IMG/VR virus record: IMGVR_UViG_3300048768_000066
Location: 1 to 50,668 of that record
DNA length: 50,668 nucleotides
Direction: 5' to 3' (one strand)
Source of the DNA: a virus
Lineage: Duplodnaviria > Caudoviricetes
Part shown: one piece after another, positions 7,281 to 50,194 of the stretch
Numbering within the stretch: position 1 is the first letter of the stretch
Layout of the letters: every line of letters starts with the position of its first letter
The notes under the pieces: model-generated
What the model was told of the DNA's origin: nothing
The model's database searches: none
What the model saw: only the letters and a program-made list of their open reading frames with translations
Position numbers and translations under genes: made by a program

Positions 7281-8930
7281 ATGGCCAGGTATAGGTTTCC
7301 GAAGGAACTGAACGGGATCACGAAGGACCAGAATGGGCGTGTACTGGAAGGGGTGACGGTGAGTGTCTTCTTGGCGGGGACGACTACGCCTGCGAAGATA
7401 TATGCAACTGCGGTGAGCACGCCTGCGGTTTACAGTGTTTTGAGTGATGCTTCGGGGTCTTTCGTATTTTATGTAAGTGATGGGGATTACACCTATCCAC
7501 AGGCGTTTGACATTGTTTATTCAAAGTCGAGCGGGGGTGTTGAGTACACGACCACGACGAGCAGCAATGTAGGGATACTGACAGCGCCGTCGGCTTCCGG
7601 GAATATTGTTTACAACAACACCACGGCGATAGCCGGGAACTTCGCGTCTTTTTCCGGGGGCACGGGTAAGTTGATAGAGGATTCGGGGACGGCGTTGGCC
7701 GGGTTTGTGACTCTGACGGCGGTGCAGACGCTTACCAACAAGACCCTGACATCCCCGAAGATTAACGAAGCTGTTGCGCTGACAGCCACCTCGACGCAAC
7801 TTAACGCTTCAGCTGCGGCTACACATGCCGCTGTGACGGTATCGGCCCCGATCGTTGTTACCGGGCAGGCTCTTTCCATTGTCAATAGCGCGGCGGCGAC
7901 GGTAACGGCGGTGGATACTGGGACGCTGGCAAGTTCCGATACGGTGATTCCGACAAGTAAGGCGGTTGTGACGGCGATAGCGGCGGCTTCCGGGGCGGTT
8001 GTCGCGTCGGGCGCGGAACTGGATACCGGCACGGACAATGCCAAATTCGCTTCGGCCAAAGCCTTAAAAGACAGTCACAACGTTCCGAGCGTCGTGCCCG
8101 GAACGGCAAGCAATGTTTTACAAAGCGACGGAACAGACTGGATCAGCGGGGCGGCTCCTGCTGGCGTTGTGGCCACTGGCGCAGAGTTGGACACGGGGAC
8201 AAACAATACTAAGTTTGCCTCTGCGAAGGCGTTGAAGGATTCCCACAACGTGCCTTCGGTTGCGCCTTCCACGGCAGGTAATGTGCTGACTTCTGATGGA
8301 ACCGACTGGACAAGCGGGGTGGCGCCCGGATGGAAACAGACCGTCGGAACGTTCACCGCTACCCCTGCATCGACTTCCACTTTGACCATGACTTCCGATT
8401 TGACGGCGACCATTTTAGCGAATATGCCGCTGAAGTATGTCATCGGCGGCGTGACAAAGTACGGAATGGTTGGAACCATTGTCAGCAACCTTTTGACCGT
8501 CAACGGCGCGGCCCTGAGTGGGGACGTGACGGCCCTGTATTACGGCGGAGGCACTATCAGGCAGGTAGTCATCATCATCCCGTCAACTTACGAGGATGCG
8601 ACCAATACCGCCCTGATTACTTCTGACCTGAAATCGTCTGTGATATGGGCCTTGCCTCTTTCGTATTGCGTTCATTTCAAAATATATTCCGACACGGTGG
8701 ACAGCAGCACGAAAGGCACAGCTTCGGTGAGGATCAACGGGACCGAGCTTTGCACGACGGCAGGAGGGTTGACGCTCACGGCCGCTAAAACATGGTATGC
8801 AACGGTCGTGGACATTGCGACTGCGGCCTATGACATCAACCCGAGCGAAGCGATTGAAATAACGGCGGTGAAGAACGGAGCCGGAGATGCTTCGGATCTC
8901 ACCGTTGAGATGATCTTCGTGACCCCGTAG
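7281..8930 (+). CDS. Fibre-like virion protein with internal ~56-aa tandem duplication
   Basis: N-terminal Ig/head-binding-like domain, QTLTNKTLTSPKIN fibre motif, T/A/G/S-rich, repeat at ~7998-8327. Confidence 0.7.
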   Translation: MARYRFPKELNGITKDQNGRVLEGVTVSVFLAGTTTPAKIYATAVSTPAVYSVLSDASGSFVFYVSDGDYTYPQAFDIVYSKSSGGVEYTTTTSSNVGILTAPSASGNIVYNNTTAIAGNFASFSGGTGKLIEDSGTALAGFVTLTAVQTLTNKTLTSPKINEAVALTATSTQLNASAAATHAAVTVSAPIVVTGQALSIVNSAAATVTAVDTGTLASSDTVIPTSKAVVTAIAAASGAVVASGAELDTGTDNAKFASAKALKDSHNVPSVVPGTASNVLQSDGTDWISGAAPAGVVATGAELDTGTNNTKFASAKALKDSHNVPSVAPSTAGNVLTSDGTDWTSGVAPGWKQTVGTFTATPASTSTLTMTSDLTATILANMPLKYVIGGVTKYGMVGTIVSNLLTVNGAALSGDVTALYYGGGTIRQVVIIIPSTYEDATNTALITSDLKSSVIWALPLSYCVHFKIYSDTVDSSTKGTASVRINGTELCTTAGGLTLTAAKTWYATVVDIATAAYDINPSEAIEITAVKNGAGDASDLTVEMIFVTP

Positions 8931-8939
8931 GAGAAGGGA

Positions 8940-9464
8940 ATGGCGGTATATTCGCATAATCCACTTTGCATAACGGATGTACAAATCTCTGATACCAGTC
9001 CGTGTGTCATTACGTTTTCTGCGGAATACGCTCCAGGCTATGAAGCATATCGTTCTTTCGATCATTTAAATATAATTACAAATTCTTGGTATTCCTATCT
9101 TGCTACGACGGGTTGGATTGAGGTTGATTTGGGAGAGGGAATTACTAAGAGTATTACTTCATACACCGTGTCTTTCCCTTATGATTATGTTGACTTCCTT
9201 GATGGACCTAACGCTTGGACTATTAGAGGAAGCGCTAACGGGACTTCTTGGACAACGGTTGATACTCAAACCGGACAATCCTGGTCCGGCGCGAATGAGA
9301 TGAAAACTTTCACACTCGGTTATACCACGTCTGCTTATCGGTATTGGTTGATGGACATAACGTCGAATTGCGGCGGCAATTCTCTGATGATGGGAGAATT
9401 GGAATTGATAGGACCGGCGGTCGGACCAGTGAGTTACAACAGAAATAACATCATGATCTTTTAA
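8940..9464 (+). CDS. Discoidin (F5/8 type C)-like carbohydrate-binding protein
   Basis: WIEVDLG...PNAWTIRGSANGTSWTTVD...YRYW...ELELIG. Confidence 0.8.
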   Translation: MAVYSHNPLCITDVQISDTSPCVITFSAEYAPGYEAYRSFDHLNIITNSWYSYLATTGWIEVDLGEGITKSITSYTVSFPYDYVDFLDGPNAWTIRGSANGTSWTTVDTQTGQSWSGANEMKTFTLGYTTSAYRYWLMDITSNCGGNSLMMGELELIGPAVGPVSYNRNNIMIF

Positions 9465-32600: not shown

Positions 32601-33411
32601 ACAGTTGGATGAGAATGGCAGGCCCGCAAGGGTGGCTTTGCCGTCGTACATGAAAGACCTTGTTCATTATTACGAAACGCCGGGGAAAACATTAGTCAAT
32701 AAACTGCATCCTGCTCTTGCGGAGTTAGGGCAAATGCTTGAGAATGAGGATTTTTACGGGGTCCAAATAGCCGACTGGTCGGAAGGTGTCGGGAAGACGT
32801 TATCCAATCCTCAAATATACAAAGACTATGCTTCATATTTAGGTAAGTCTGTACTACCTTTTGGCGTGAGATTCCTTCAAAGAGAACGGCAATTAGGCGG
32901 TAGTTTGGTGGATCAAGCATTGCCTTTCGTTGGCATTACTCCCGCTCCGGCATACGTCAACAAGACATCTGCCGAAACGCTTATGTCAAATTTGGTTCAA
33001 AGCCGAATGCCAAAAGCAACTATCACAAAAGCCCAGTTTGAACAGTTTCAGGCCAAAAGACAGGCGAAGGCATCGCTTCGGAGAGGGCAAGAAATAAGTC
33101 CAGAGGTCGAACATGAGTTGGGAAAGATGTCTAATAAGCAATTAAAGACTATGGTTTCTGATGTTAGGAAGGGAACCTTTGAAAAGCAATTTGGCATTCT
33201 TACTTTGAAAGAGGGAATCCAAGTTTATAAAAAAGCCAATGCAGAGGAACAGCCGATGGCTGCGGTCTTGTTAATGCAGAAGTTAAAGAACACTGCTAAA
33301 AACAATCCTTCTAATATTGAGTCATTGACTAAGAATGAAAAGGAATTCTTACTGGAAGAACTCTACCACACAAAACCATCGGCAGTGGAGTCCGTAGGAA
33401 CGAGGCAATAA
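29650..33411 (+). CDS. Large internal virion/ejection protein (polyvalent-like)
   Basis: 1253 aa, helical; modular N-terminal repeats including HExxH (AHEKAH). Confidence 0.6.
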   Translation: MGLVDQVIQQNNSGNSLVDEALRPGPSLVDEALAGPSFKAKAIDFLTGGHVPAEPTYAGSELTAQGKLDPRVQTGDPGFFNDPIVWGAMGAVAGVRAAGGVAGKALAAGREAVGWMTGGASEVPAMAKGGVETILKGTEAKNLGKLAEARAGKPFAEVARKVEAPTASLVDEALKVGPKVAPVVQPGAPSGGKQPWEMTADEWTNKVLAEGEAKTQFGKLDQQTRDIASANAQDYHYGAVEDAVKAGKPVPPEVLADYPDLKAPSGGKQPWEMTREEFKSNPPEGMIYKPQKGEIISGVESDGTISVGDSFFEHGLKDRKDIIAHEKAHLLEGTITPEYKAKLFDNKTVMDYRGKNINEKLANMIVDGKLPPEVLKDYPDLKAPAAGAKGGLSNEAGAIDPDLLTLGTTKFLKEDVIPTSKTLANIMRQSGKDIRNVLSPVSAGPQAAQTAGIMRKNLAEMARSTDRAQEALKQARGFFVSKDPQFNYDFIHSIETGAKKRFGLKGPNPDDSFLDHTASVMRSLMNKKVDEVRALGTGKLEEVIENYFPHMWQDPKKANEAFMNWYAKRPMEGSKGFLKKRTIPTTQEGLEMGLTPISNNPVDLTILKLREMDKYIMAQKTMKSMKDTGLATFVRAGQKAPDGLVPINDRIATVYAPPELQGPVGRTILGAYYAPEDAARIINNYLSPGLRGNQGFRAYLGAANILNQAQLGLSAFHLGFTSVDAMTSKMALALGQASHADVGKAVVSMLQVPIAPVENILRGRKLYKEWMTPGSQSTEISKLVDAVVTAGGRARMDNFYRTEYARKAADAFRSGNIIGGLIRAPFAAVDLAAKPIMEYIVPRQKLGVFADLARYELDRLGKAGATEPEIHTALAKIWDSVDNRMGQLVYDNLFWNKMGKDLSMASVRSLGWNLGTFRELGGGGIDLAKQVFDIVNRRSPELTYKMAYTAALPITTGILGATLYYLYNGKAPETLKDYYFPKTGQLDENGRPARVALPSYMKDLVHYYETPGKTLVNKLHPALAELGQMLENEDFYGVQIADWSEGVGKTLSNPQIYKDYASYLGKSVLPFGVRFLQRERQLGGSLVDQALPFVGITPAPAYVNKTSAETLMSNLVQSRMPKATITKAQFEQFQAKRQAKASLRRGQEISPEVEHELGKMSNKQLKTMVSDVRKGTFEKQFGILTLKEGIQVYKKANAEEQPMAAVLLMQKLKNTAKNNPSNIESLTKNEKEFLLEELYHTKPSAVESVGTRQ

Positions 33412-33497
33412 TGGAAGACCCTCATTTTAATGATGCAGAAGAGCTATCGGAAGACGACGACAGCGGGGACCCGGCTTTCATGGATGACGACGAATGA
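33411..33497 (+). CDS. 28-aa acidic peptide, not in ORF track
   Basis: MEDPHFNDAEELSEDDDSGDPAFMDDDE; TAATG and ATGA overlaps at both ends. Confidence 0.6.
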   Translation: MEDPHFNDAEELSEDDDSGDPAFMDDDE

Positions 33498-34738
33498 CCG
33501 ACTATTCTAAAAAGAATGTGCTGTTTATCGGATCGGGTATCGACTGTACCCATGCCGAAAGGATGGCGCAGGATGTCCAAAATCTTTGGTACTTCACTCC
33601 GGTATTCAACGGCTTCCCGAAGATCGAGGACTATGCCAATGGCTTTGGTTTGCCGGGTGTCGAGAAGATCATGCGGCCCCACAAGTATATCAACAAGGCG
33701 GATCTGATTGTCTTCGGGGATATTGGCAACGGGGACTGGGCGGACAAATTGAGAGAGGAAGGTCATACTGTCTTCGGATCTGGAGAAAAGGAAGAGGACT
33801 TAGAATTAGACCGATTCAAGGCAAGACAAATACAGGACAAGCTCGGCCTTCCTATTCAATATACCGAGAAGAAGAAGGGGATGACTGCTCTTACAAAGTA
33901 TCTTGAAAAGAACAAGGATGTGTACGTCAAGCCCTTCATCTTCCGGGGGACCAGGGAAACGACCCATGTCACTAACGACCGGATTATGAAAGAGCTTTTG
34001 AAGAAGTTGGCTGCGCGGTTTGGGCCGATGGGCGAAGAAGTTACATTCACTTGCGAAGATCCGGTGAAGGATGCGATAGCCGAAGTGGCGTATGGTATCG
34101 TATTTAACGGGAAGGAAGCGATCAAACCTTATGAGTTTGGACTTGAAAAGGATGGTCCGTATATTCTTCATTACAGGGATGAGCTTCCGGCACCGATTCA
34201 AAATTCCCTCAATAGAATTTCTAAACTATTGGCGAAAACAGACTACCGGGGGGCTTTCAGCGACGAGGAGCTTGTTGTCAGTAACAAGAAAAGCTATCCG
34301 ATAGATTTCACGGTGCGTTGGGCGTTTCCGCTTTCGACTATTTACTGCGAGACGTGGAAGAATTACACAGAGGTCATTTTCAAGTGCGCTCAAGGTGAGG
34401 ATGTAAAAATTGATGTGATTGCGCCTTTTGCCGGGTGTCTTTCGCTTGCTTGCGAAGAAGCCGAAAAGGATTGGGTATGGGTTGACATCAACAAGGAAAA
34501 CGAGAGGCACGTCAGGCCGATATATGGATGTTGCACAAAAGACGGGTACTATGCCGTCAAGGGTTATTCCGTGGGGATCAACCTGATAGCGTGGGGGGGC
34601 TCTGTTGAAAGCGTGGTAAGCCAGTTGAAAGATTTAGCGGGCAGTATTGATTCGCATGATCTACGTGTCGAATATTCACGCTTGGACGACATCGTAAGTG
34701 ACATTGAAAAGTTAAACGAAATCGGGATCGAATTTTAG
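33494..34738 (+). CDS. ATP-grasp ligase, divergent PurD/GARS-like
   Basis: VLFIGSG, VFGS...LELDR...LGLP, VYVKP, YRGAF...IDFTVRWAFP (PurD has IEFNCRFGDP). Confidence 0.75.
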   Translation: MTDYSKKNVLFIGSGIDCTHAERMAQDVQNLWYFTPVFNGFPKIEDYANGFGLPGVEKIMRPHKYINKADLIVFGDIGNGDWADKLREEGHTVFGSGEKEEDLELDRFKARQIQDKLGLPIQYTEKKKGMTALTKYLEKNKDVYVKPFIFRGTRETTHVTNDRIMKELLKKLAARFGPMGEEVTFTCEDPVKDAIAEVAYGIVFNGKEAIKPYEFGLEKDGPYILHYRDELPAPIQNSLNRISKLLAKTDYRGAFSDEELVVSNKKSYPIDFTVRWAFPLSTIYCETWKNYTEVIFKCAQGEDVKIDVIAPFAGCLSLACEEAEKDWVWVDINKENERHVRPIYGCCTKDGYYAVKGYSVGINLIAWGGSVESVVSQLKDLAGSIDSHDLRVEYSRLDDIVSDIEKLNEIGIEF

Positions 34739-34744
34739 GGAGGT

Positions 34745-35338
34745 ATGAAAATGTTTTATGTAACGAGTTACTTAGGAAGGGCGTTGACGAGCCAGAAGAT
34801 TGTCCCTGGGAACACCCCCACGGGGATCGCTCCATTCGTATATGAGTATAAGGAGCAGTTAATCACATTCACTGGCGGCGGTCCTACGGTGATTGCCATA
34901 GGAACCGTAATCTATGGGGCAACGAGTCACGTTACCGGCATCGTCGTTTCAACGCCTGTTTTGACTGGGGGAACTTTCGGGGGGAGTGACGCGGCTGGTT
35001 CTTTCCGCATCAAATCATCCACGGGGACATGGACGTCGGGAGAGAAACTTACCGTAGCCGCGACTGCCGACGATGGAGATATGACGGGCCTTCCCGTTGA
35101 TTGTGCCGACAATTATCTCTACAAGGGCATGACCGCACGGGCCGCCATGGTATCGGTAAGCGGGAATACGGCATTGATGTCTGAAACGAGTACGCCGGAT
35201 CAGACGTACCTCATGGGGCATTCTATGACCGTTCCCTCTTCGTATATCTTGTATGACATAGGCGACATAATGGCTGTAAGGTTTGTTGATTATGCTTCGG
35301 GAAGTGCATCAGTCATAAACGTAACGTGTCGTTTTTAA
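34745..35338 (+). CDS. Virion structural protein (beta-rich)
   Basis: GGAGGT RBS; VLTGGTFGGSDAAGSF resembles TITSGSWAGGDAAGKF in the nozzle protein. Confidence 0.55.
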   Translation: MKMFYVTSYLGRALTSQKIVPGNTPTGIAPFVYEYKEQLITFTGGGPTVIAIGTVIYGATSHVTGIVVSTPVLTGGTFGGSDAAGSFRIKSSTGTWTSGEKLTVAATADDGDMTGLPVDCADNYLYKGMTARAAMVSVSGNTALMSETSTPDQTYLMGHSMTVPSSYILYDIGDIMAVRFVDYASGSASVINVTCRF

Positions 35339-35349
35339 GGAGAATGGTG

Positions 35350-36474
35350 ATGAAAAAACTACTTGTTTTACTTTGCATTGTGCTCATGTTTGCGGCAAAT
35401 GCACATGCTCAACTTGCCGGGGACGGGATACATTATGGCGGCGGGGGCACAGGTTCCATGACTTACCCCGGAGTCGGTATCCCCTACACAGCCAATGGGT
35501 CAAGTTGGGGAACGTCCTTTGGTGTGGGAACCATGACGGATACCTTTCTCTGCTCCTATGCCACAAGCGGGAACACACTTTCCTGCAATACGAATCTGGC
35601 TGCGCCCGGTCCCATCGGCGGCACTACACCATCGGCGGTCTATGCGAAACCGGCTGTCGTTAAAGGTCCGGCTGTCATATCTTCCTTTGCCGGGACGGTG
35701 AGCACTTCGGGTTCTTCAACAACGGTTACTTTCACCTCCACTGCCGATGCGATCCTTGCCGGCTATAACGCCACTAATCCCATCCTTGGTTTTACGTTGA
35801 TAGCGGGTGGGTTCACCCGGTATATTCAGTCATGGACGAACTCCACGACCTGCGTTGTTGACACAGCGGTCACGCTGGCAGGGAGCACAGCAATAACCTC
35901 TGTTCAAGCTCCAATAGCGGTTTATATTACCTCTGCCGGAACGATCATGGGTTACATGGATGCGGCAGGGATCATGCACTTACTGGGAGGTGCGGTTCAA
36001 ACTGGTTCTTTCACCTTCTCCAATGGAGCATCCGCTGGCTGTATCTATTTACAAGAAGGTTCGGGCGGCGGAACTGATACCTCTGCACTGTGTGGGGCGG
36101 CAGCAGTAACTGGCAACCAGGTCTTCACGCTACCAACCTCTACGGGAACAATGGCCCTAACCACTGAAAACGGTCTAACCTCGTATCGGTATGGGGCGGT
36201 TGTCAACAACAATGCCACGCTTACACTTCCCACGGTGACGGCAAGTTCGGGTGGCAGGGGAACGATAGTCGTAGGGGCGAATGTTGATGAAGCAACCTTC
36301 ACGACGGACGCTTCGGGGAATGTCACTCTGAGTGAATGGACGGGAGGAATTGTAGCTAACGCTTCGACGGCTTACAAAGTTCAGATCGGAGCTGCGGCTC
36401 CGGCTAATCCGGTAGTCATAACCAATGCGTCTGGCGGAAATATAATGATTCAGGTCACATTCTTGTACAATTAA
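35350..36474 (+). CDS. Fibre-like protein with Sec signal peptide
   Basis: MKKLLVLLCIVLMFAANAHA; fibre motifs PGPIGGTTPS and FTLPTSTGTMALT. Confidence 0.7.
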   Translation: MKKLLVLLCIVLMFAANAHAQLAGDGIHYGGGGTGSMTYPGVGIPYTANGSSWGTSFGVGTMTDTFLCSYATSGNTLSCNTNLAAPGPIGGTTPSAVYAKPAVVKGPAVISSFAGTVSTSGSSTTVTFTSTADAILAGYNATNPILGFTLIAGGFTRYIQSWTNSTTCVVDTAVTLAGSTAITSVQAPIAVYITSAGTIMGYMDAAGIMHLLGGAVQTGSFTFSNGASAGCIYLQEGSGGGTDTSALCGAAAVTGNQVFTLPTSTGTMALTTENGLTSYRYGAVVNNNATLTLPTVTASSGGRGTIVVGANVDEATFTTDASGNVTLSEWTGGIVANASTAYKVQIGAAAPANPVVITNASGGNIMIQVTFLYN

Positions 36475-36481
36475 GGAGAGG

Positions 36482-36949
36482 ATGATGAAAAAGAAACTAT
36501 TTACAACTATTGAACTGATAGCTTTCCTGCTGATCCCGGTAATCTGTTTCTCGGCAGCGGCGCATTACGGGGCGTTTGACGCTATCACCAGTAGCGGGGG
36601 AAGCACCTTGACCATTGACGCCGCTCAATCTCTTTCCGCAATGAAGGACAAGGTTGTCGCTGCGGGGAACTGCGTGAACAGTTATTCGGTCAACGCCGCT
36701 AATGGAGCGCTTATCCAGCTCACGTTGGCTGGCAACTGCGCTATTACCACGGCCGCCCCGGTAGCTGGTCAGAGTTTCGCTATCGAACTTTCACAGACCA
36801 ACACGGCAGCTCCGGTTTTTAACGGCACATACTTCAAATGGGGCAATCAACCGACGTGGAGTGCTGCGGGAGGTCTGTATGACTATGCCGCCTGTACATA
36901 CTTCAACACGACGGCTTGGTGGTGCGCGGGTCAGGCTAATATCCATTAA
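36482..36949 (+). CDS. Fibre-tip-like domain protein with signal peptide
   Basis: MMKKKLFTTIELIAFLLIPVICFSAAA; NG..IQLTLAGN...FAIELSQ...KW..PTWS...D...W pattern of fibre C-terminal knobs. Confidence 0.65.
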   Translation: MMKKKLFTTIELIAFLLIPVICFSAAAHYGAFDAITSSGGSTLTIDAAQSLSAMKDKVVAAGNCVNSYSVNAANGALIQLTLAGNCAITTAAPVAGQSFAIELSQTNTAAPVFNGTYFKWGNQPTWSAAGGLYDYAACTYFNTTAWWCAGQANIH

Positions 36950-36960
36950 AGGGGGATAGA

Positions 36961-37572
36961 ATGAAGAAAAGCATTTTAGCGATACTTTTAGCAATTTGCT
37001 TATTGCTTCCGGTTGTTGGTTACTCTAAAACGGGAGCGGAGCGGATGCTTCAGGGGATAGTGGGGGGAAGTGTGGCAGGTGCGGCACCACAAGCGGCGGA
37101 CTATTTTGGCTACAATCAAATTGGTCTGTCCTCTTATATTGACGGTACACCCAGGTGGGAGAAAAATAAAGGATACAGTACGGGGTATATCTGCCCAGGC
37201 ACGGGGACACGGACAGTCGATATGCTTGAACAATATTCTTCAGGGTATTACGGTACATATGCGGTAAAGATTGCTCTGTACACCACGGGAGATATGTTGG
37301 TTTGCCAGACAAATAATTTTAATGTCACGGAGGCAACTCCAGCTTGGTATGGGGCTGCTCCAAATGCAGTCTGTCATTGTACAGGCGGAACATCATATAG
37401 ACTGGCTATGTCGAGTTACAATACCTATATGTATTATAATTCAGGTTCTTCCGGTGATTCAGGAATCGGAACAGATGATTACGTGACAGCGGCTTTCCCG
37501 GGCTCAATCGGTGCTGGTGCGGATAATGATAGTATATTTTCTATGAGGGCGCATGTGGCGGCCATACCATGA
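36961..37572 (+). CDS. Adhesin-like protein with signal peptide
   Basis: MKKSILAILLAICLLLPVVGYS; Tyr/Gly/Cys-rich, VKIALY...SYRLA beta-sandwich pattern. Confidence 0.65.
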   Translation: MKKSILAILLAICLLLPVVGYSKTGAERMLQGIVGGSVAGAAPQAADYFGYNQIGLSSYIDGTPRWEKNKGYSTGYICPGTGTRTVDMLEQYSSGYYGTYAVKIALYTTGDMLVCQTNNFNVTEATPAWYGAAPNAVCHCTGGTSYRLAMSSYNTYMYYNSGSSGDSGIGTDDYVTAAFPGSIGAGADNDSIFSMRAHVAAIP

Positions 37573-39089
37573 AAAAACTATACCTGATAATTCTGCTTTT
37601 GCTCCTGCCGACCTTATCTTGGGCGGCGTGTACTGGTTCAAGTCCTAACTGGGCGGCGACCGGGGCTTATGCTGATGTTGCAAGCTGCGTATCGCAAGCC
37701 ACGGCAGGAGATACGATCACCATTACTGGAAATGCTACGTGGACAGGTAGCACCCTTACAGTTGACAGGGGGGTGAATCTGGTTGGCGCAAGCAATCCCG
37801 TTATTACATCAAAAGGTACTGCTATCCAATGGACACCTGGAACGGCGGCAAGGGCAGCCCATGACACGCTAAAGATCATCGGCATAACCCTTGACGGCAA
37901 TAGTGCGGCGATGGCCGACTGCGGATACATGGGCCTCATCAATGTTGACAGCGCTTCATCTACTAATTATGTGACCCTTATCGTCGGGAACAACACCATC
38001 AAAAATACCTCAGATTGCCGGGCCTTGTATCTCCGCCATGGCGCAGTGAGAGGCGTTGCCTATCAAAATGATTTTGACACCATTGGGTATCTCCTATTTT
38101 CTGGAGAAAACGATTCTGGCGCGTGGGCAGGTAGAACTCAGTCGTTTGGCGCAGCCAACAACGGGGATAACTTTTACCTTGAGGACAATTACATTCACGG
38201 AGGTGGAAGTTATACTGAAGTTGGCGACGGTGGAAGAGCAGTTCTGAGATACAATACTTGGGATTTCGCAGGGCATGATACTCTTTGGGACGTTCACGGG
38301 TTACAGTCAATGCAGACCACGGCCGGAGGAGAATGTCAATCAGCGGGAGGCTGTGACCCGACAAAGACAGTATGCGGACAACACTCCGCGATGGTATATG
38401 AAAATTACGGCAATGTTGCACGGGGCAGAGATGACGGTTCTGATGGCTACCAGTGGTTGTATTTAAGGGGTGGCTGGTCGCTATGGTTTAACAATACATA
38501 CACTTCTACCACAGGAAAAACGCCGATAACGGTGTGGTTAAACTACGCTTGCGATAGTTGCCAAGACTCAGGAAGCGCAAGTGAGCATATCCAGAATACT
38601 TACCAGTGGAACACCTTTGCCAATGGCACAAGAAGAACGCTGGCGAAAAGTTTCGATATGTGCGCCGATGCTTTTTACACAAACCAGACAACTTACGCGG
38701 CCCAAGTGGCCGCCTCTGCCATACGAGAAGATTATGAGTTTTTTAATGACAAGTATGCTGCCTACGATGGGACAAGCGGGGTTGGCTGTGGGTCAACTCT
38801 TCCAGCCACCTGCACGGCGAATAAGACGGCATACTGGTTGACGAATCAGTCCTGCACCGATGTTTCAACATTCTCAGGTGCGAAGGGCATTGGCTCTGAG
38901 AATAGGAGTGCTAATATCTCCGGCACCCTCTACAAATGCACAGGAACAAACACTTGGACAAGTTACTACACCCCCTACACCTACCCCCACCCGTTGAGGG
39001 GAGCAACAGCAAGTTCTGGCACAGCCACCCTCGGCGGCACCGGAACAGTGACTATTGGCGGGAGTGGAACGATCACGATCACTCCGTAA
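37569..39089 (+). CDS. Cys-rich beta-helix protein with signal peptide
   Basis: MKKLYLIILLLLLPTLSWA; ATAGDTITI cap, NNTI/EDNYI/RYNT rungs, YTPYTYPHPL motif. Confidence 0.7.
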   Translation: MKKLYLIILLLLLPTLSWAACTGSSPNWAATGAYADVASCVSQATAGDTITITGNATWTGSTLTVDRGVNLVGASNPVITSKGTAIQWTPGTAARAAHDTLKIIGITLDGNSAAMADCGYMGLINVDSASSTNYVTLIVGNNTIKNTSDCRALYLRHGAVRGVAYQNDFDTIGYLLFSGENDSGAWAGRTQSFGAANNGDNFYLEDNYIHGGGSYTEVGDGGRAVLRYNTWDFAGHDTLWDVHGLQSMQTTAGGECQSAGGCDPTKTVCGQHSAMVYENYGNVARGRDDGSDGYQWLYLRGGWSLWFNNTYTSTTGKTPITVWLNYACDSCQDSGSASEHIQNTYQWNTFANGTRRTLAKSFDMCADAFYTNQTTYAAQVAASAIREDYEFFNDKYAAYDGTSGVGCGSTLPATCTANKTAYWLTNQSCTDVSTFSGAKGIGSENRSANISGTLYKCTGTNTWTSYYTPYTYPHPLRGATASSGTATLGGTGTVTIGGSGTITITP

Positions 39090-39095
39090 AGGAGA

Positions 39096-39494
39096 ATGCG
39101 AATGGAATATACCGGCAAAGAGAGACGAAATGCAGTCATCCCAGTATGCGGCTTACATAAGAATATTGATGGAAAACTCGACCGAATCTTGGAACGTCAG
39201 GAAGGTCATATTGCCGATATCCAGCATATAAAGGATGTTGTCGAGAACGGACTCAAGACCGCTGTCATTAATACAAATGGCAACGTCGCTGAGTTACGGG
39301 ATCGCGTCACCAAAATAAAAGAATCCCTTAGTTTGTTGGAAGAGGGTTTTAAGACATTCAGTTGGTTCCGAACATGGGTTACTGAATTACGGGACAAGCT
39401 CTTTAAGCGAGTAATGCAGATTGCGTTTGTGGGGGCGATAGTATGGTTCATCCTCAATTTTGGGAAACAGGCGATTTTTAAGATTTTATCATAG
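39096..39494 (+). CDS. Coiled-coil protein with C-terminal TM helix (lysis-associated)
   Basis: Y.GKERR start, heptads, IAFVGAIVWFIL; precedes the endolysin. Confidence 0.6.
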   Translation: MRMEYTGKERRNAVIPVCGLHKNIDGKLDRILERQEGHIADIQHIKDVVENGLKTAVINTNGNVAELRDRVTKIKESLSLLEEGFKTFSWFRTWVTELRDKLFKRVMQIAFVGAIVWFILNFGKQAIFKILS

Positions 39495-39502
39495 GTTGGT
39501 AG

Positions 39503-39919
39503 ATGAAACACTTTGCTTTATACGAACTTGTTGACCGTGTGACATATACAAAGTGGGGAGAGCTTGCTTTTGGCCTATTCGCTCCCGATCTCCTGATTGC
39601 CCTCGACGGAGTTCGTGACTTCTTCAACGTACCAATTACTGTCAACAACTGGTACGGAGGAGGGCCTTTCCAGTACCGTGGATACCGTGGACCTGACTGT
39701 CCAGTAGGAGCCGAGAATTCCTACCATAAGAAGGGTATGGCCGCAGACTTCGACGTTCAAGGGTTGGATGCGGATGTTGTACGGGGGATGATTATGGAAC
39801 ACCAGAATGACCCTCTGTTGGAAAAGATTCAACGTCTTGAGGCGGATGTAAATTGGGTTCACATGGATGTAGGGAAGGTTCCAGAAGGCAAACAAAGGAT
39901 CTATGTTTTCAAAGCATGA
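39503..39919 (+). CDS. Endolysin, peptidase M15 family
   Basis: HFALYELV, GYR, SYHKKGMAADF, WVHMD. Confidence 0.85.
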   Translation: MKHFALYELVDRVTYTKWGELAFGLFAPDLLIALDGVRDFFNVPITVNNWYGGGPFQYRGYRGPDCPVGAENSYHKKGMAADFDVQGLDADVVRGMIMEHQNDPLLEKIQRLEADVNWVHMDVGKVPEGKQRIYVFKA

Positions 39920-40077
39920 AAGGAAACATAATGAATGATTAAGCCGCAATAGGAAAGCTAACCACCCATTGCAATGGGAATCTGAAAGCGGCTTATTGGG
40001 ACATAAGAAGGTTGGCCCGTGCGCACGGTTCTTATGTTTAAGAAACAAGAAACATTTAAGGAAAGGGATGAAGATGG

Positions 40078-40305
40078 ATGATGACCCTGGCGGTTTTTGT
40101 TGCGAACATAGCGACAGACATTTTGGCCGTCCTTTTTATCAGAGAAGTAACGGCGCATCATCGCATAAGGGCGGCTCTGGTAAGTATGCTGATCGTGGCC
40201 CTGTCCTACTTCTCAATCATCTATATCGTAGCCAACGTGTATTATATGATCCCTGCAATGTTGGGCGCGGGGGTAGGCTGTTACATAACTGTGGGGCGTA
40301 AATGA
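40078..40305 (+). CDS. Small three-helix membrane protein
   Basis: Three hydrophobic segments, GAGVGCY. Confidence 0.6.
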   Translation: MMTLAVFVANIATDILAVLFIREVTAHHRIRAALVSMLIVALSYFSIIYIVANVYYMIPAMLGAGVGCYITVGRK

Positions 40306-40706
40306 AAGGAGATACCATGACAGTAGCAAAGACATTAGCAAGTATGGACGCGAAACTGGACAAGATTCTGGCGGCAGTGGTGAAAGATCCGAATGCGATT
40401 ATTCATACCCCCTTCGGGGATGTTGATCCAAGCAAACCGGCACCGGATCCGCTTCCCGCAGTCCCTCCCGTAACGCCGGTTACGGTAATCCCCGTTACGG
40501 TTCCACCCGTAGCAAAATCGTATGATTGGGAACTCGCGCAATTTATGGCGAATGGTCGAACAGTGGAGCAATTTGCACAACAGCTTGAATCGACATACCC
40601 GCCGATTGGAGAGGATTACCGATCGGACATAGGGGATTTCATAAGGGATCACCAGGAAATGTTCAGTCCCACGTTCAAGGCGGCATTTCCACAGTATTTC
40701 AAATAA
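40302..40706 (+). CDS. Hypothetical protein with Pro/Val-rich linker
   Basis: AAGGAG RBS before Met at 40317. Confidence 0.6.
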   Translation: MKGDTMTVAKTLASMDAKLDKILAAVVKDPNAIIHTPFGDVDPSKPAPDPLPAVPPVTPVTVIPVTVPPVAKSYDWELAQFMANGRTVEQFAQQLESTYPPIGEDYRSDIGDFIRDHQEMFSPTFKAAFPQYFK

Positions 40707-40719
40707 TAGGAGGTATCGT

Positions 40720-40833
40720 ATGAGCATCGCAAAGTTATTGGAAATTTTGAAGTTGATTGCCCCGCTCGCCGGGGTGGACGCGGCAAAGTTGCAGATCGTA
40801 TTGGCAATTTTGGAAATCCTAAAAACGGAGTAG
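40720..40833 (+). CDS. 37-aa amphipathic helical peptide, not in ORF track
   Basis: MSIAKLLEILKLIAPLAGVDAAKLQIVLAILEILKTE; AGGAGGT RBS. Confidence 0.7.
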   Translation: MSIAKLLEILKLIAPLAGVDAAKLQIVLAILEILKTE

Positions 40834-40846
40834 GAGGTAAGAAGTC

Positions 40847-41047
40847 ATGGATCAGTTAGTAAATTTGTTAATTATGGTTGTTGTTTTTGGCAGTATTGCT
40901 TATGGGTTGTATTGGGTGCTGACCCATTTCAAAGCCCCCCTTCCTGTGTTTTGGATCGTGGGAGTGATCCTGTTGATCTTCCTGTTGTATTTCCTCATGG
41001 GGCAGTTCGGGGGCGGAGGCTACCATCTGCGTTTCGGAAGGTGGTGA
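40847..41047 (+). CDS. Two-TM membrane protein, holin candidate
   Basis: AGGAGGT RBS; two long hydrophobic helices, basic C-tail. Confidence 0.6.
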   Translation: MDQLVNLLIMVVVFGSIAYGLYWVLTHFKAPLPVFWIVGVILLIFLLYFLMGQFGGGGYHLRFGRW

Positions 41048-41048
41048 A

Positions 41049-41594
41049 ATGAACGATCTCTCAAGCTATATGGCTGTCCGGGATAAGATCCAGACGGGTG
41101 ATCTTATCCAATGGCATAGTAACGATATGGTCGGTTCCGCTATTATGTTCATTACGGAGAAATATCGTAGAAAGTATGAAATTGACCACGATGTCAATGT
41201 TAGCCATACAGCCAGTGTCATTCGTTTACCATCGTTTGAACGGGATCGAAGATATACCCTTGAGTCGTTGGAATCTGGTCCTTCCCTACATATCCTAAGC
41301 AAACGCCTTGAAGCCTACAATGGGAAGGTTTACTGGTATCCAGTCAACGCCACCGAAGAGGAACGTAACGTATGGGGAGGAAATGCCCTTGACTGCATTG
41401 GGGATGGGATCTCCTATGGATACACCGACATTCTGAAATTCATCGTGGAGAGGCCAAAAATCGACATCAAAAATGGTCTGATTTGCTCAGAGTATTGGAT
41501 GTATTGTTGGGGTTACGCGGGAACGTCTCTCAGTCCGAATGAATTGCCTACCCTTGACCGGCTCAAGGATTCGATCCCGGTTAGGATACTATAA
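41049..41594 (+). CDS. Permuted papain-like (YiiX/YebB, NlpC/P60) amidase
   Basis: IQTGDLI, SH before YxY and ICSE (permuted His...Cys order). Confidence 0.75.
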   Translation: MNDLSSYMAVRDKIQTGDLIQWHSNDMVGSAIMFITEKYRRKYEIDHDVNVSHTASVIRLPSFERDRRYTLESLESGPSLHILSKRLEAYNGKVYWYPVNATEEERNVWGGNALDCIGDGISYGYTDILKFIVERPKIDIKNGLICSEYWMYCWGYAGTSLSPNELPTLDRLKDSIPVRIL

Positions 41595-43738: not shown

Positions 43739-44263
43739 TTAGATTAAGTTTACCTTGGCTCCTTCCCCGAAATATTTGATAGCTGCATTATTATAAGCCA
43801 TTGCCGCATCTTTGGGATTATCGAAATATCCAAGATGAAATCGCTTTCGTTTGACACCTATTTTACTTGTAAATTTTTGCTCTTTAATATTCCAACTTAC
43901 TCCTTGATATTTTGAACGTATCATGTTTTGGGTATTTTGTGATTGTGTGCAATTCCTCAGATTTACCTTTTGGTTATTTAGGCCATTATGGTCAAGATGA
44001 TCGACCACGAATCCGACAGGTGTTTTCATAATTATTCTGTGCATAAAAATTACCTTTTTGTTTTCGACCCTGACCGCATATTTGTATTTTTCCCGACCAG
44101 CAAGACACCATTTCCATTGGGATAATAAATTGTAATCATCAGCATCTACTATCGCTACCTTTCCTTGCGATAGGGATATTTCTCTGAATCCTGTCCCGAT
44201 TCCAGTAGGGGCTATGGCATTTTGGACATACATTGATTTTTGGCTTCCGGGGAGACCATTCAT
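43739..44263 (-). CDS. HNH-AP2 homing-endonuclease-like protein
   Basis: ISLSQGKVAIVD, MHRII...VDHLDHNGLNNQKVNLR, AP2 motif SKYQGV...HLGYF...AAMAYN. Confidence 0.9.
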   Translation of the reverse strand: MNGLPGSQKSMYVQNAIAPTGIGTGFREISLSQGKVAIVDADDYNLLSQWKWCLAGREKYKYAVRVENKKVIFMHRIIMKTPVGFVVDHLDHNGLNNQKVNLRNCTQSQNTQNMIRSKYQGVSWNIKEQKFTSKIGVKRKRFHLGYFDNPKDAAMAYNNAAIKYFGEGAKVNLI

Positions 44264-49719: not shown

Positions 49720-49964
49720 TAAACACTATATCGCGCAAGGTGAAAAGACAAGAGGATCATGTAATTTCCGTCACTTGCGACAAATGCAAAAAAGTTATAC
49801 ACACCGATGATTACACGGAAATTCAAGAAATGCACCATGTACGCTTTACGGGGGGATACGGATCGGTCTTCGGCGATGAATCCAAAGTCGAGTGTGACTT
49901 GTGCCAGCAATGCCTCAAGGAAGTGATCGGGCAATATTGCAGAGTGGACGGCGAGGCCCTATGA
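49716..49964 (+). CDS. Zinc-finger protein
   Basis: CDKCKK...GGYGSVFGD...DLCQQC. Confidence 0.7.
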   Translation: MINTISRKVKRQEDHVISVTCDKCKKVIHTDDYTEIQEMHHVRFTGGYGSVFGDESKVECDLCQQCLKEVIGQYCRVDGEAL

Positions 49965-50194
49965 CTCGCCGCTACCTTGCTCTCCTCGGCGCCATCATCC
50001 TCCTGGTGGCGATCTACTGCGGCCTGATGTGGATGCTGCTCCAGCCAGCGCCGAAGCCGACCAGACCTCCTGAATGGTCGCCTGCGGAGAAAGGGTGGGT
50101 CATTCACCGCATGCAGGTACACGGGATCTGGGGCTGTGAATGCGATGGAAATAATTGCTACTTTTATCGTAATGGCAAGAAATGTCCATTGTGA
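49961..50194 (+). CDS. Small N-anchored membrane protein
   Basis: MTRRYLALLGAIILLVAIYCGLMWMLL; Cys-rich C-terminus. Confidence 0.6.
   Translation: MTRRYLALLGAIILLVAIYCGLMWMLLQPAPKPTRPPEWSPAEKGWVIHRMQVHGIWGCECDGNNCYFYRNGKKCPL

Follow-up and report, generated by a model that had tools for sequence, protein, structure and literature searches.

The viral record IMGVR_UViG_3300048768_000066, a complete genome of 50,668 bp with direct terminal repeats from an uncultured tailed phage of peat (the window, by which we mean the whole of this stretch), contains four consecutive genes on the plus strand, designated genes 1 to 4 (35350-36474, 36482-36949, 36961-37572 and 37569-39089), all of which begin with a Sec-type signal peptide (leader) and whose predicted products are a fibre-like protein, a knob-like protein, a lectin-like jelly roll and a right-handed beta-helix, respectively. 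The leaders, the four fold classes, the setting of cellular gene-4 relatives in exopolysaccharide (EPS) loci and the recurrence of leader-bearing runs in other phages are solid findings, the fold classes being predicted from two good models, one module homology combined with a trimer model, and one look-up. Based on these findings, we think it somewhat probable that the cassette is a late module whose products are exported via Sec, are folded oxidatively, recognise and cut host EPS, and then either dock on virions or act free.

Leaders of the four-gene cassette

Genes 1-4 are co-directional, tightly packed open reading frames (ORFs), of which genes 1-3 have strong Shine-Dalgarno sites (AAGGAG 7 nt upstream of gene 1) and gene 4 starts in an ATGA overlap with the gene 3 stop. 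Predicted Sec signal peptides, all on the plus strand, were located at 35350..35409 in gene 1 (20 aa, MKKLLVLLCIVLMFAANAHA followed by Q, cleavage after AHA), 36482..36562 in gene 2 (27 aa, MMKKKLFTTIELIAFLLIPVICFSAAA followed by H, cleavage after AAA), 36961..37026 in gene 3 (22 aa, MKKSILAILLAICLLLPVVGYS followed by K, cleavage after GYS) and 37569..37625 in gene 4 (19 aa, MKKLYLIILLLLLPTLSWA followed by A, cleavage after SWA). Each begins with MKK or MMKKK and has a positive n-region, a hydrophobic core of 10-16 residues and small residues at -3/-1, and all four N-termini fit the Sec/signal peptidase I pattern (n-region, h-region of 7-15, small -3/-1). The lipobox pattern [LVI][ASTVI][GAS]C was not found in any of the four N-termini; the near-lipoboxes fail in that LAIC of gene 3 has I at -1 and WAAC of gene 4 has W at -3, and in gene-4 homologues Q or E precedes the conserved Cys.

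The leader calls were made with our own heuristics, visual inspection and conservation in homologues. Among all non-overlapping window ORFs of at least 50 aa, these four and no others were flagged by a hydropathy/charge rule. A second rule, which additionally demands a cleavage-type site and no further transmembrane (TM) segment, flagged five of the 55 window ORFs of at least 80 aa, namely genes 1-4 and 49901-50194. Since leader-type N-termini were found in 8 of 398 ORFs away from the cassettes of 31 unrelated viral loci, and only one extra ORF was flagged in the window, four adjacent leaders are far beyond chance. The extra ORF (97 aa) has an Arg-rich start and then an internal hydrophobic stretch, and is probably a small membrane protein outside the cassette.

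The Cys content of the four proteins was 1.6-3.2%, compared with 0-2% in most structural proteins of the phage. Scans of Pfam, PHROG and NCBIfam revealed no family for any of the four, and tblastn of genes 1, 3 and 4 against 50,697 GenBank phage records gave no match. A preliminary description of this DNA had pointed to Sec-type leaders without a clear lipobox on all four ORFs, to Cys-rich mature parts, and to mature parts resembling a fibre, a knob, an adhesin and a beta-helix. The leaders were confirmed by the pattern and by both heuristic rules, the Cys residues behave like disulfide pairs across the gene-4 family (see below), and the four fold classes are as described, as far as they could be tested.

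It is quite unlikely, in our judgement, that these N-termini are uncleaved membrane tethers or buried helices, with tail assembly proceeding from the cytoplasmic side and nothing exported. Such an arrangement would agree with the cytoplasmic assembly of all known tailed-phage fibres, but all four N-termini have classic cleavage-type c-regions, and further evidence on both sides comes from the individual proteins.

The beta-helix protein and its relatives in exopolysaccharide loci

Gene 4 (37569..39089, plus strand) encodes a predicted exported right-handed beta-helix of 506 aa, which AlphaFold2, Foldseek and the family context mark as a candidate EPS-active enzyme. The AlphaFold2 model, built from a 21-sequence alignment, had a pLDDT of 85 and a pTM of 0.87, with a beta-helix of stacked short strands from residue 21 to about residue 470, a detached N-terminal helix and a disordered C-terminal tail. 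Foldseek comparison, which the preliminary description had proposed, gave weak matches for both proteins compared, to phage domains for gene 3 (see below) and to beta-helices for gene 4. The latter (E ~1e-3, TM ~0.3) included PL6 alginate lyases, AlgE4 epimerase, the HK620 tailspike and phage pectate-lyase-type proteins, and the top PDB matches as well as most of the named viral ones were beta-helix proteins. A PDB profile search returned only the PL6 lyases AlyGC and BcAlyPL6 (E 1e-4, residues 28-155 only), and Pfam and NCBIfam gave no match for gene 4; a few of its relatives carry PF12708.

More than 455 relatives of gene 4 were found at E<=1e-3, forming an uncurated family with invariant acidic, His and Arg columns at E205, R227, H243 and E278. 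Among the 119 relatives listed, our heuristic assigned a Sec-like leader to 85, a twin-arginine pattern (possibly false) to 8 and no leader to 26, some of the last being fragments. The junction between leader and mature part is conserved as WA/ACTGSSP, the slash marking the junction. In viral loci the gene-4 leader was present in 26 of 38; among the other 12, four were cut at the 5′ end and the leader of one (L004) was missed by the rule. The pairing of Cys residues, of which the window protein has 14, was counted across 120 family members. C407 and C429 co-occurred in all 104 sequences having either, C415 and C457 in 115 of the 116 sequences carrying each, and C40 was always accompanied by C21 (77/77); the pair C118/C150 was present in the window protein only. 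Cys residues that are gained and lost in pairs are what disulfides, and hence an exported protein, would be expected to show.

These data bear on the possibility of uncleaved tethers. The gene-4 leader and the WA/ACTGSSP junction are shared with cellular homologues from EPS loci, whose products must be exported, the paired Cys residues speak for an oxidising environment, and the models of both gene 3 and gene 4 place the N-terminal helix apart from the rest, with low confidence; all three argue against tethering.

In species-representative genomes, 313 stretches from many bacterial and archaeal phyla were found to encode a gene-4 relative. With 45% identity over residues 3-477, a leader-bearing protein encoded on the chromosome of Syntrophus buswellii is the closest cellular relative. 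It is flanked on one side by genes for a Wzx-type flippase, PGA_cap, a TupA-type ATP-grasp protein and an Asn-synthase-like protein, and on the other by genes for the exosortase EpsH, a histidine kinase, a sigma-54 regulator and a PEP-CTERM protein, and this neighbourhood is an EPS/exosortase locus. Relatives of its EPS-synthesis/exosortase genes were present in 11 of 77 other cellular loci and in none of 93 viral loci; counted gene by gene, relatives of the Syntrophus neighbours occurred in 2-7 of the 77 cellular loci, and the PEP-CTERM protein had none. For five further cellular loci, chosen from other phyla, the two immediate neighbours of each were scanned with Pfam. At least one immediate neighbour was a polysaccharide gene in all five (GT1; polysaccharide deacetylase; Wzz-type kinase and fucosidase; AlgX-like SGNH protein; Wzx-type flippase), and four of the ten neighbours had no Pfam family. 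EPS genes were therefore found beside the gene-4 homologue in six of the six cellular loci scanned with Pfam. These neighbours, together with the leaders, indicate that the cellular family is an exported beta-helix of EPS loci.

Exported beta-helix or glycanase enzymes of the AlgG, AlgL and PslG types are familiar in EPS operons. A closer comparison by role, and a precedent for an EPS enzyme that is both exported and tailspike-like, is offered by WceF of Pantoea stewartii, described in PMC7949094 as a right-handed beta-helix that forms a tailspike-like trimer, is exported via Tat and trims stewartan, its gene lying within the EPS cluster. The cellular gene-4 relatives share with WceF an export signal and the setting in an EPS locus; WceF has a Tat signal and 736 aa, whereas gene 4 has a Sec-type leader, encodes 506 aa and is phage-borne (PMC7949094). 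The two are likened by role.

At the C-terminus of the gene 4 product (39030-39089, residues ~480-506), a duplicated Gly-rich 10-mer (TLGGTGTVTI and GGSGTITITP) was noticed, which was modelled with low confidence. Most family members (P0002-P0120) end 15-35 residues past YPHPLR in one of two short tails, the other of which is a P-x-N/G-L-x-I/V-x strand resembling the first FN3 strand, and some relatives extend past YPHPLR into Ig-like domains, dockerins or PT linkers. The C-terminal tail of gene 4 could be a sorting, trimerisation or strand-donation tag.

The fibre, jelly-roll and knob proteins

Gene 1 (35350..36474, plus strand) encodes a predicted exported fibre-like protein of 374 aa, identified by module homology and a trimer model, whose N-terminal stretch is rich in Gly, whose shaft module (~95-225) is conserved and whose C-terminal part varies. 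Its 14 relatives share the central module only (50-78% identity), inside otherwise unrelated modular proteins. The module was also present in 13 viral loci, with a best segment 42-66% identical. Ten of these module-bearing viral ORFs are signal-less (344-1392 aa; three cut by the contig end), most of them in tail-gene contexts, and three (L091, L092 and L093) have a leader; in L092 the module ORF stands behind another leader-bearing ORF and ahead of genes for a small TM protein and a lysozyme-like product. That the module is common to signal-less fibres is a point in favour of the tethers considered above. A PDB sequence-profile search with the gene-1 family gave nothing usable, and ESM Atlas matches of gene 1, found only at the 0.84 level (viral), were not counted as evidence.

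Trimer modelling of mature chains, which had been suggested together with the preliminary description, predicted gene 1 as a trimer. Residues 75-374, modelled in three copies, gave an intertwined trimer with an ipSAE of 0.90, compared with 0.02 for the best of three controls; the partner pLDDT was at least 82, and at least 92% of the contacts were common to the runs. In the calibration of the tool, the mark was reached by 20 of 30 solved one-chain pairs and by 1 of 23 single chains, and since two copies and other alignments were used there, these counts apply only roughly to gene 1. A stretch of about 60 residues that is rich in Gly and shows no recognisable adaptor makes up the mature N-terminus, which is unrelated to that of the first leader-bearing protein of a related contig, L007, whose large terminase, portal and capsid protein are 40%, 43% and 40% identical to those of the window, respectively. 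As far as homology and modelling indicate, gene 1 is a fibre protein that has a leader and a Gly-rich stretch in place of the customary N-terminal part.

Gene 3 (36961..37572, plus strand) encodes a predicted exported protein of 203 aa with a jelly-roll, lectin-like domain (~45-200), assigned by AlphaFold2 and Foldseek. The model (pLDDT 89) is an all-beta sandwich in which residues 3-14 form a detached helix and the linker 25-32, with pLDDT <50, lies ahead of the domain. Foldseek against PDB gave weak matches (E 2e-4 to 1e-3, TM 0.4-0.5) to a cyanophage capsid-associated chain, to baseplate/central-fibre domains and to polymer- or sugar-binding domains. Among 28 aligned members scanned with Pfam, 27 had no family and the 28th had one weak unrelated match, and a PDB sequence-profile search with the family gave nothing usable. 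At E<=1e-3 there were 87 representatives, one being a fragment of the window's own protein; of the 86 others, the heuristic assigned 19 as Sec-like, 6 as twin-arginine-like and 61 as having no leader and starting at the domain. In L003 a signal-less gene-3 member is located two genes after a leader-bearing gene-4 homologue. It was also noticed that the relatives P0147, P0150, P0153, P0155 and P0206 have twin-arginine-type leaders (e.g. NRRAFIRS), the domain thus occurring with Sec, Tat or no signal.

Gene 2 (36482..36949, plus strand) encodes a predicted exported protein of 155 aa that an ESM Atlas look-up likens to a tail-fibre C-terminal knob. It was placed near viral clusters with PF26209 Phage_phiTE_241_C (feature score 0.91, 176/256 shared; TM 0.64-0.76). 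Gene 2 is a sequence orphan, with no relative among proteins of 85-272 aa and no Pfam match at E<=0.1, and because a match to the Pfam model was absent and the similarity came from the Atlas only, it was not assigned to PF26209. The fibre-tip-like knob is offered as a lead. Gene 2 was also considered as a homologue of the C-terminal domain in the first leader-bearing protein of L007, a candidate that was dropped after BLASTP gave no match.

Recurrence of leader-bearing genes in other phages

Full-length gene-4 homologues were encoded in 31 viral loci, and by the strict rule 20 of these homologues were leader-bearing. In the same loci, ORFs at most two positions from the beta-helix gene were leader-bearing in 38 of 116 cases, against the background of 8 of 398 elsewhere. 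Such a survey of related phages had been called for when the cassette was first noticed, and it revealed that unrelated uncultured phages repeatedly have leader-bearing runs ending in a beta-helix. The neighbours with leaders make up a mosaic network, with 45 of 154 clustered proteins falling in one component and exchanging N-terminal, middle and C-terminal modules. When ten leader-bearing neighbours from other viral cassettes were scanned with Pfam, one weak FlgD_ig match was the only result. In seven loci (L004, L051, L052, L055, L059, L074 and L080), fibre-like ORFs of ~1,300-2,100 aa with Sec-type leaders that exchange modules were also noticed; these loci were fetched via a beta-helix relative, and some hold only the C-terminal domain of the beta-helix protein.

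The contig L007 is instructive in that a homologue of 34745, the gene preceding the cassette in the window, is followed there by three leader-bearing genes and then by the terminase gene. The first of the three is fibre-like, with a C-terminal domain that matches gene-1 relatives (E 6e-9), the second is unrelated, and the third is a gene-4 homologue. Comparison of L007 with the window shows that the slot and the leaders are conserved and that the mature domains are swapped.

The gene 34745..35338 (plus strand) is a signal-less gene of 197 aa and a conserved core gene of the phage group. It had no match in Pfam, PHROG, NCBIfam or PDB profiles, and its homologues (33-47% identity) were found in five viral loci (L007, L176, L177, L179 and L180), following a giant protein (1,253-2,260 aa) or a fibre-like ORF in the three loci with upstream DNA. 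Downstream of it, L176 has a 570-aa fibre without a signal and, behind that, a pair of leader-bearing genes; L177 and L179 have genes without a signal, followed by small ones with leaders; and L180 goes straight on to the terminase gene with no cassette. The preliminary description had proposed that 34745 might be the virion-side anchor of the exported proteins. This proposal was not upheld, since the variable content downstream, including the lack of a cassette in L180, marks 34745 as a core gene beside a variable host-range slot and not a partner specific to the exported proteins. The lack of relationship between the mature N-termini of the first leader-bearing proteins of the window and of L007 likewise gives an anchor role no support.

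Comparison with known systems

The closest likeness among cultured phages was found in Cellulophaga phage phi10:1 (GenBank:KC821618), in which five genes in a row, gp091-gp095, all start with leaders and lie at the distal end of the tail module; gp095 is annotated as a pectate lyase, with small TM proteins and a gene of the lysozyme family behind it. As in the window, consecutive late leader-bearing genes end in a beta-helix directly before TM proteins and a lysozyme. The two differ in that the phi10:1 leaders end in AQ or GQ (Bacteroidota type), the host phylum is another one, and a virion annotation exists for phi10:1 only. In the record notes, gp091-094 are marked as structural proteins by experimental tandem mass spectrometry (MS/MS) proteomics. 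The same proteomics note is otherwise found only on expected virion proteins (portal, minor and major capsid, connector, gp083, gp087, gp088 and gp090), and no further fibre-type gene is annotated in the remaining 30 kb. In several other Cellulophaga phages, gp093 has homologues that bear a structural annotation. Cytoplasmic assembly would be the simplest explanation of these Cellulophaga virion records, which again speaks for tethered or buried N-termini.

With the tailspike and fibre depolymerases (the P22 and HK620 tailspikes and those of Klebsiella phage), the cassette shares a beta-helix, mosaic fibres with a trimeric shaft, a position beside lysis genes and, presumably, glycan targets. 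Classical tailspikes are leaderless, fold in the cytoplasm and have an N-terminal particle-binding domain, whereas in the window all four proteins have leaders and gene 4 has no domain before the helix.

Exported phage proteins of the envelope are represented by T4 Spackle, T5 Llp, the Cor-type lipoproteins and lambda Lom and Bor. They are phage-encoded proteins that pass through the host Sec machinery and function in the periplasm or outer membrane, as the cassette products might; unlike these, they are small, single, non-fibre proteins, mostly lipoproteins or outer-membrane barrels, with no homology to tail fibres or beta-helices, whereas the window proteins have no lipobox. By analogy with T4 Spackle and T5 Llp, which act in such roles, the cassette might serve superinfection exclusion or prevent re-adsorption: the exported fibre, knob and lectin would bind the phage's own glycan receptor from the periplasmic or surface side of the infected cell and so mask it, and the beta-helix would trim it, none of them ever entering virions, so that later phages and released progeny would be spared waste on infected cells and debris. 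This would fit the finding that the same domain families are leaderless, and presumably in the virion, elsewhere and leader-bearing here, as expected of an exported receptor-binding copy, and it would fit the absence of adaptor regions from genes 2-4 and the presence of a separate signal-less fibre/lectin set with a discoidin-type domain (7281-9464). However, the genes lie in a late structural/lysis operon and exclusion genes are usually early or constitutive, masking needs no trimeric shaft, leader-bearing fibre-like proteins of ~1,300-2,100 aa in other loci would be a large cost, and leader-bearing proteins are recorded in phi10:1 virions. We therefore regard this explanation as unlikely, if not strikingly so.

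Our literature searches revealed no description of Sec-leader-bearing tail fibres or depolymerases of tailed phages, a result that holds for those searches only. Leader-bearing phage genes of unassigned function are mentioned in passing in PMC10367356 and PMC5723332.

Genome setting and neighbouring genes

DNA near-identical to the window is contained in peat metagenomes of several studies, and the region 33400-41100 was matched by difference-free contigs in peat metagenomes from two further studies. In two peat RNA libraries, short difference-free contigs lay over parts of 34745, of genes 1, 2 and 4, and of 40302-40706; one such contig covered 36470-36912 of the gene 2 region with zero differences. 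Because RNA libraries can contain DNA and the comparison was made without a silent control stretch, these matches are not proof of transcription; the uncovered parts carry no meaning. No tRNA gene was found in the window. A host among the Syntrophales is a guess suggested by the best gene-4 match only; the phage portal was not found in three genomes with gene-4 relatives, nor in the 151 Syntrophales genomes searched.

The lysis region is located directly downstream of the cassette (39096..41047, plus strand), as identified by endolysin families and by TM segments in the translations. It encodes a 132-aa coiled-coil protein with a C-terminal TM segment (39096-39494), an M15 endolysin without a leader (39503-39919; PHROG 894 endolysin, E 1e-20; Pfam Peptidase_M15_3) and small multi-TM proteins (40078-40305 and 40847-41047), all on the plus strand. 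Neither a spanin pair nor a lipoprotein was recognised in this region.

Signal-less fibre genes elsewhere in the genome, which the preliminary description had also reported, were found at 7281-9464, where a fibre/lectin set without leaders includes a 174-aa member with an F5/8 type C (discoidin) domain. Residues 12-110 of the 549-aa protein of this set are 37% identical to the post-leader region of a leader-bearing L012 protein and 42% identical to the start of the L176 signal-less fibre behind the 34745 homologue. Between the giant protein and 34745, a 414-aa gene (33494-34738) had no family match in Pfam, PHROG and NCBIfam; a relative (26% identity, 353 aa, E 6e-20) immediately precedes the leader-bearing pair of L092, an unrelated viral locus. 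Among the early genes, an HNH endonuclease with an AP2 DNA-binding domain (43739-44263, minus strand) is likely to be a homing endonuclease.

The genome as a whole bears on a further explanation, that of a moron or conversion cassette, in which the four genes would supply a lysogen or carrier-state host with secreted adhesins and EPS-remodelling factors (e.g. for aggregate formation) and would have no role in infection. Leader-bearing morons, lom and bor, do occur within lambda-type late regions, and the gene-4 relatives are cellular EPS-locus genes. Leader-bearing genes of unassigned function in Porphyromonas prophages have been proposed to modify the host surface (PMC10367356). Against it, no integrase or repressor was recognised, although with only 28 window ORFs scanned their absence is not established; the genome has direct terminal repeats; the portal was not found in the Syntrophales genomes searched; the genes are translationally packed in a late operon with no promoter-like gap; and the mosaicism of fibre type follows that of phage tail fibres. 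We consider such a cassette very improbable.

Possible role of the cassette

If the cassette is indeed the exported EPS-directed module that we favour, each product, to judge from the leaders, would be threaded unfolded through SecYEG and cleaved by signal peptidase I at the small-residue site, and folding with disulfide formation would follow in the periplasm or another extracytoplasmic space, as the paired Cys residues suggest. Gene 1 would supply a trimeric fibre, gene 2 a tip-like knob, gene 3 a lectin-like jelly roll and gene 4 a beta-helix enzyme. The simplest explanation for the retention of the leaders would be that the folds, at least that of the beta-helix, are suited to an oxidising compartment and could not mature inside the cytoplasm. 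The proteins would wait in the envelope until the lysis cassette, with its endolysin gene directly downstream, opens the cell; at lysis the module would meet the progeny and the surrounding EPS, and would bind and trim the EPS of the lysing cell and of neighbouring hosts.

Two fates may be considered within this reading. Docking on virions, during lysis or later, to serve as an additional set of receptor-binding proteins and depolymerase, comes close to being an even prospect, and is favoured by the annotation of the phi10:1 leader-bearing proteins as virion proteins and by the fibre-type mosaicism. A free or envelope-associated action is a substantial, slightly smaller prospect, favoured by the lack of adaptor regions, by the stand-alone exported cellular relatives and by the separate signal-less set at 7281-9464. 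A wider proposition, that some tailed phages, the present one among them, build host-recognition parts outside the cytoplasm through Sec secretion, periplasmic disulfides and pickup by finished particles at lysis, is possible but doubtful.

Several points weigh against an exported module of this kind. Tailed-phage particles, including their fibres, are assembled in the cytoplasm, and no way for exported proteins to dock is known to us. An adaptor region could not be recognised in genes 2-4, the beta-helix of gene 4 beginning already at residue 21. Export is deduced from heuristic leader calls, and leaders are absent in 61 of 86 gene-3 relatives and in 10 of 13 gene-1-module loci, suggesting that such domains also fold in the cytoplasm and weakening, for genes 1 and 3, the idea that they must be exported to fold. 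Even among the 31 full-length viral beta-helix homologues, five (L016, L017, L018, L023 and L024) are leaderless and start at the mature domain. The term periplasm is an assumption. The fold of gene 2 comes from a language-model/structure look-up only, gene 4 found no more than weak matches in Foldseek and profile searches (E ~1e-3 to 1e-4, TM ~0.3), and the presumed enzyme activity and substrate of gene 4 are read from context only, without catalytic residues identified. As for phi10:1, the virion status of its leader-bearing proteins, by which the docking would be argued, stands on record annotation only, and its cassette has no sequence similarity to the four proteins of the window.

Implications for tailed-phage biology

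The assembly of tailed phages is taught as purely cytoplasmic, an assumption that also underlies the prediction and engineering of receptor-binding proteins and depolymerases. The window provides a clean case from a complete genome outside the Bacteroidota in which a fibre, a knob, a lectin and a beta-helix all have secretion signals. Leader-bearing cassettes were already visible in database annotations; the window adds the link to an enzyme of EPS loci, the gene-4 family being a phage-borne counterpart of an uncurated EPS-locus family that is widespread in bacteria and archaea. The cultured phage phi10:1, with the same layout, allows a test at the bench. If the proteins join virions, this would be a new assembly route and would give tailed-phage morphogenesis a second branch, outside the cytoplasm. 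Should they stay free, phages would secrete a dedicated EPS-remodelling kit before lysis, which would bear on the ecology of biofilms and peat aggregates and on the common practice of applying the label tailspike or auxiliary metabolic gene to any beta-helix of a phage.

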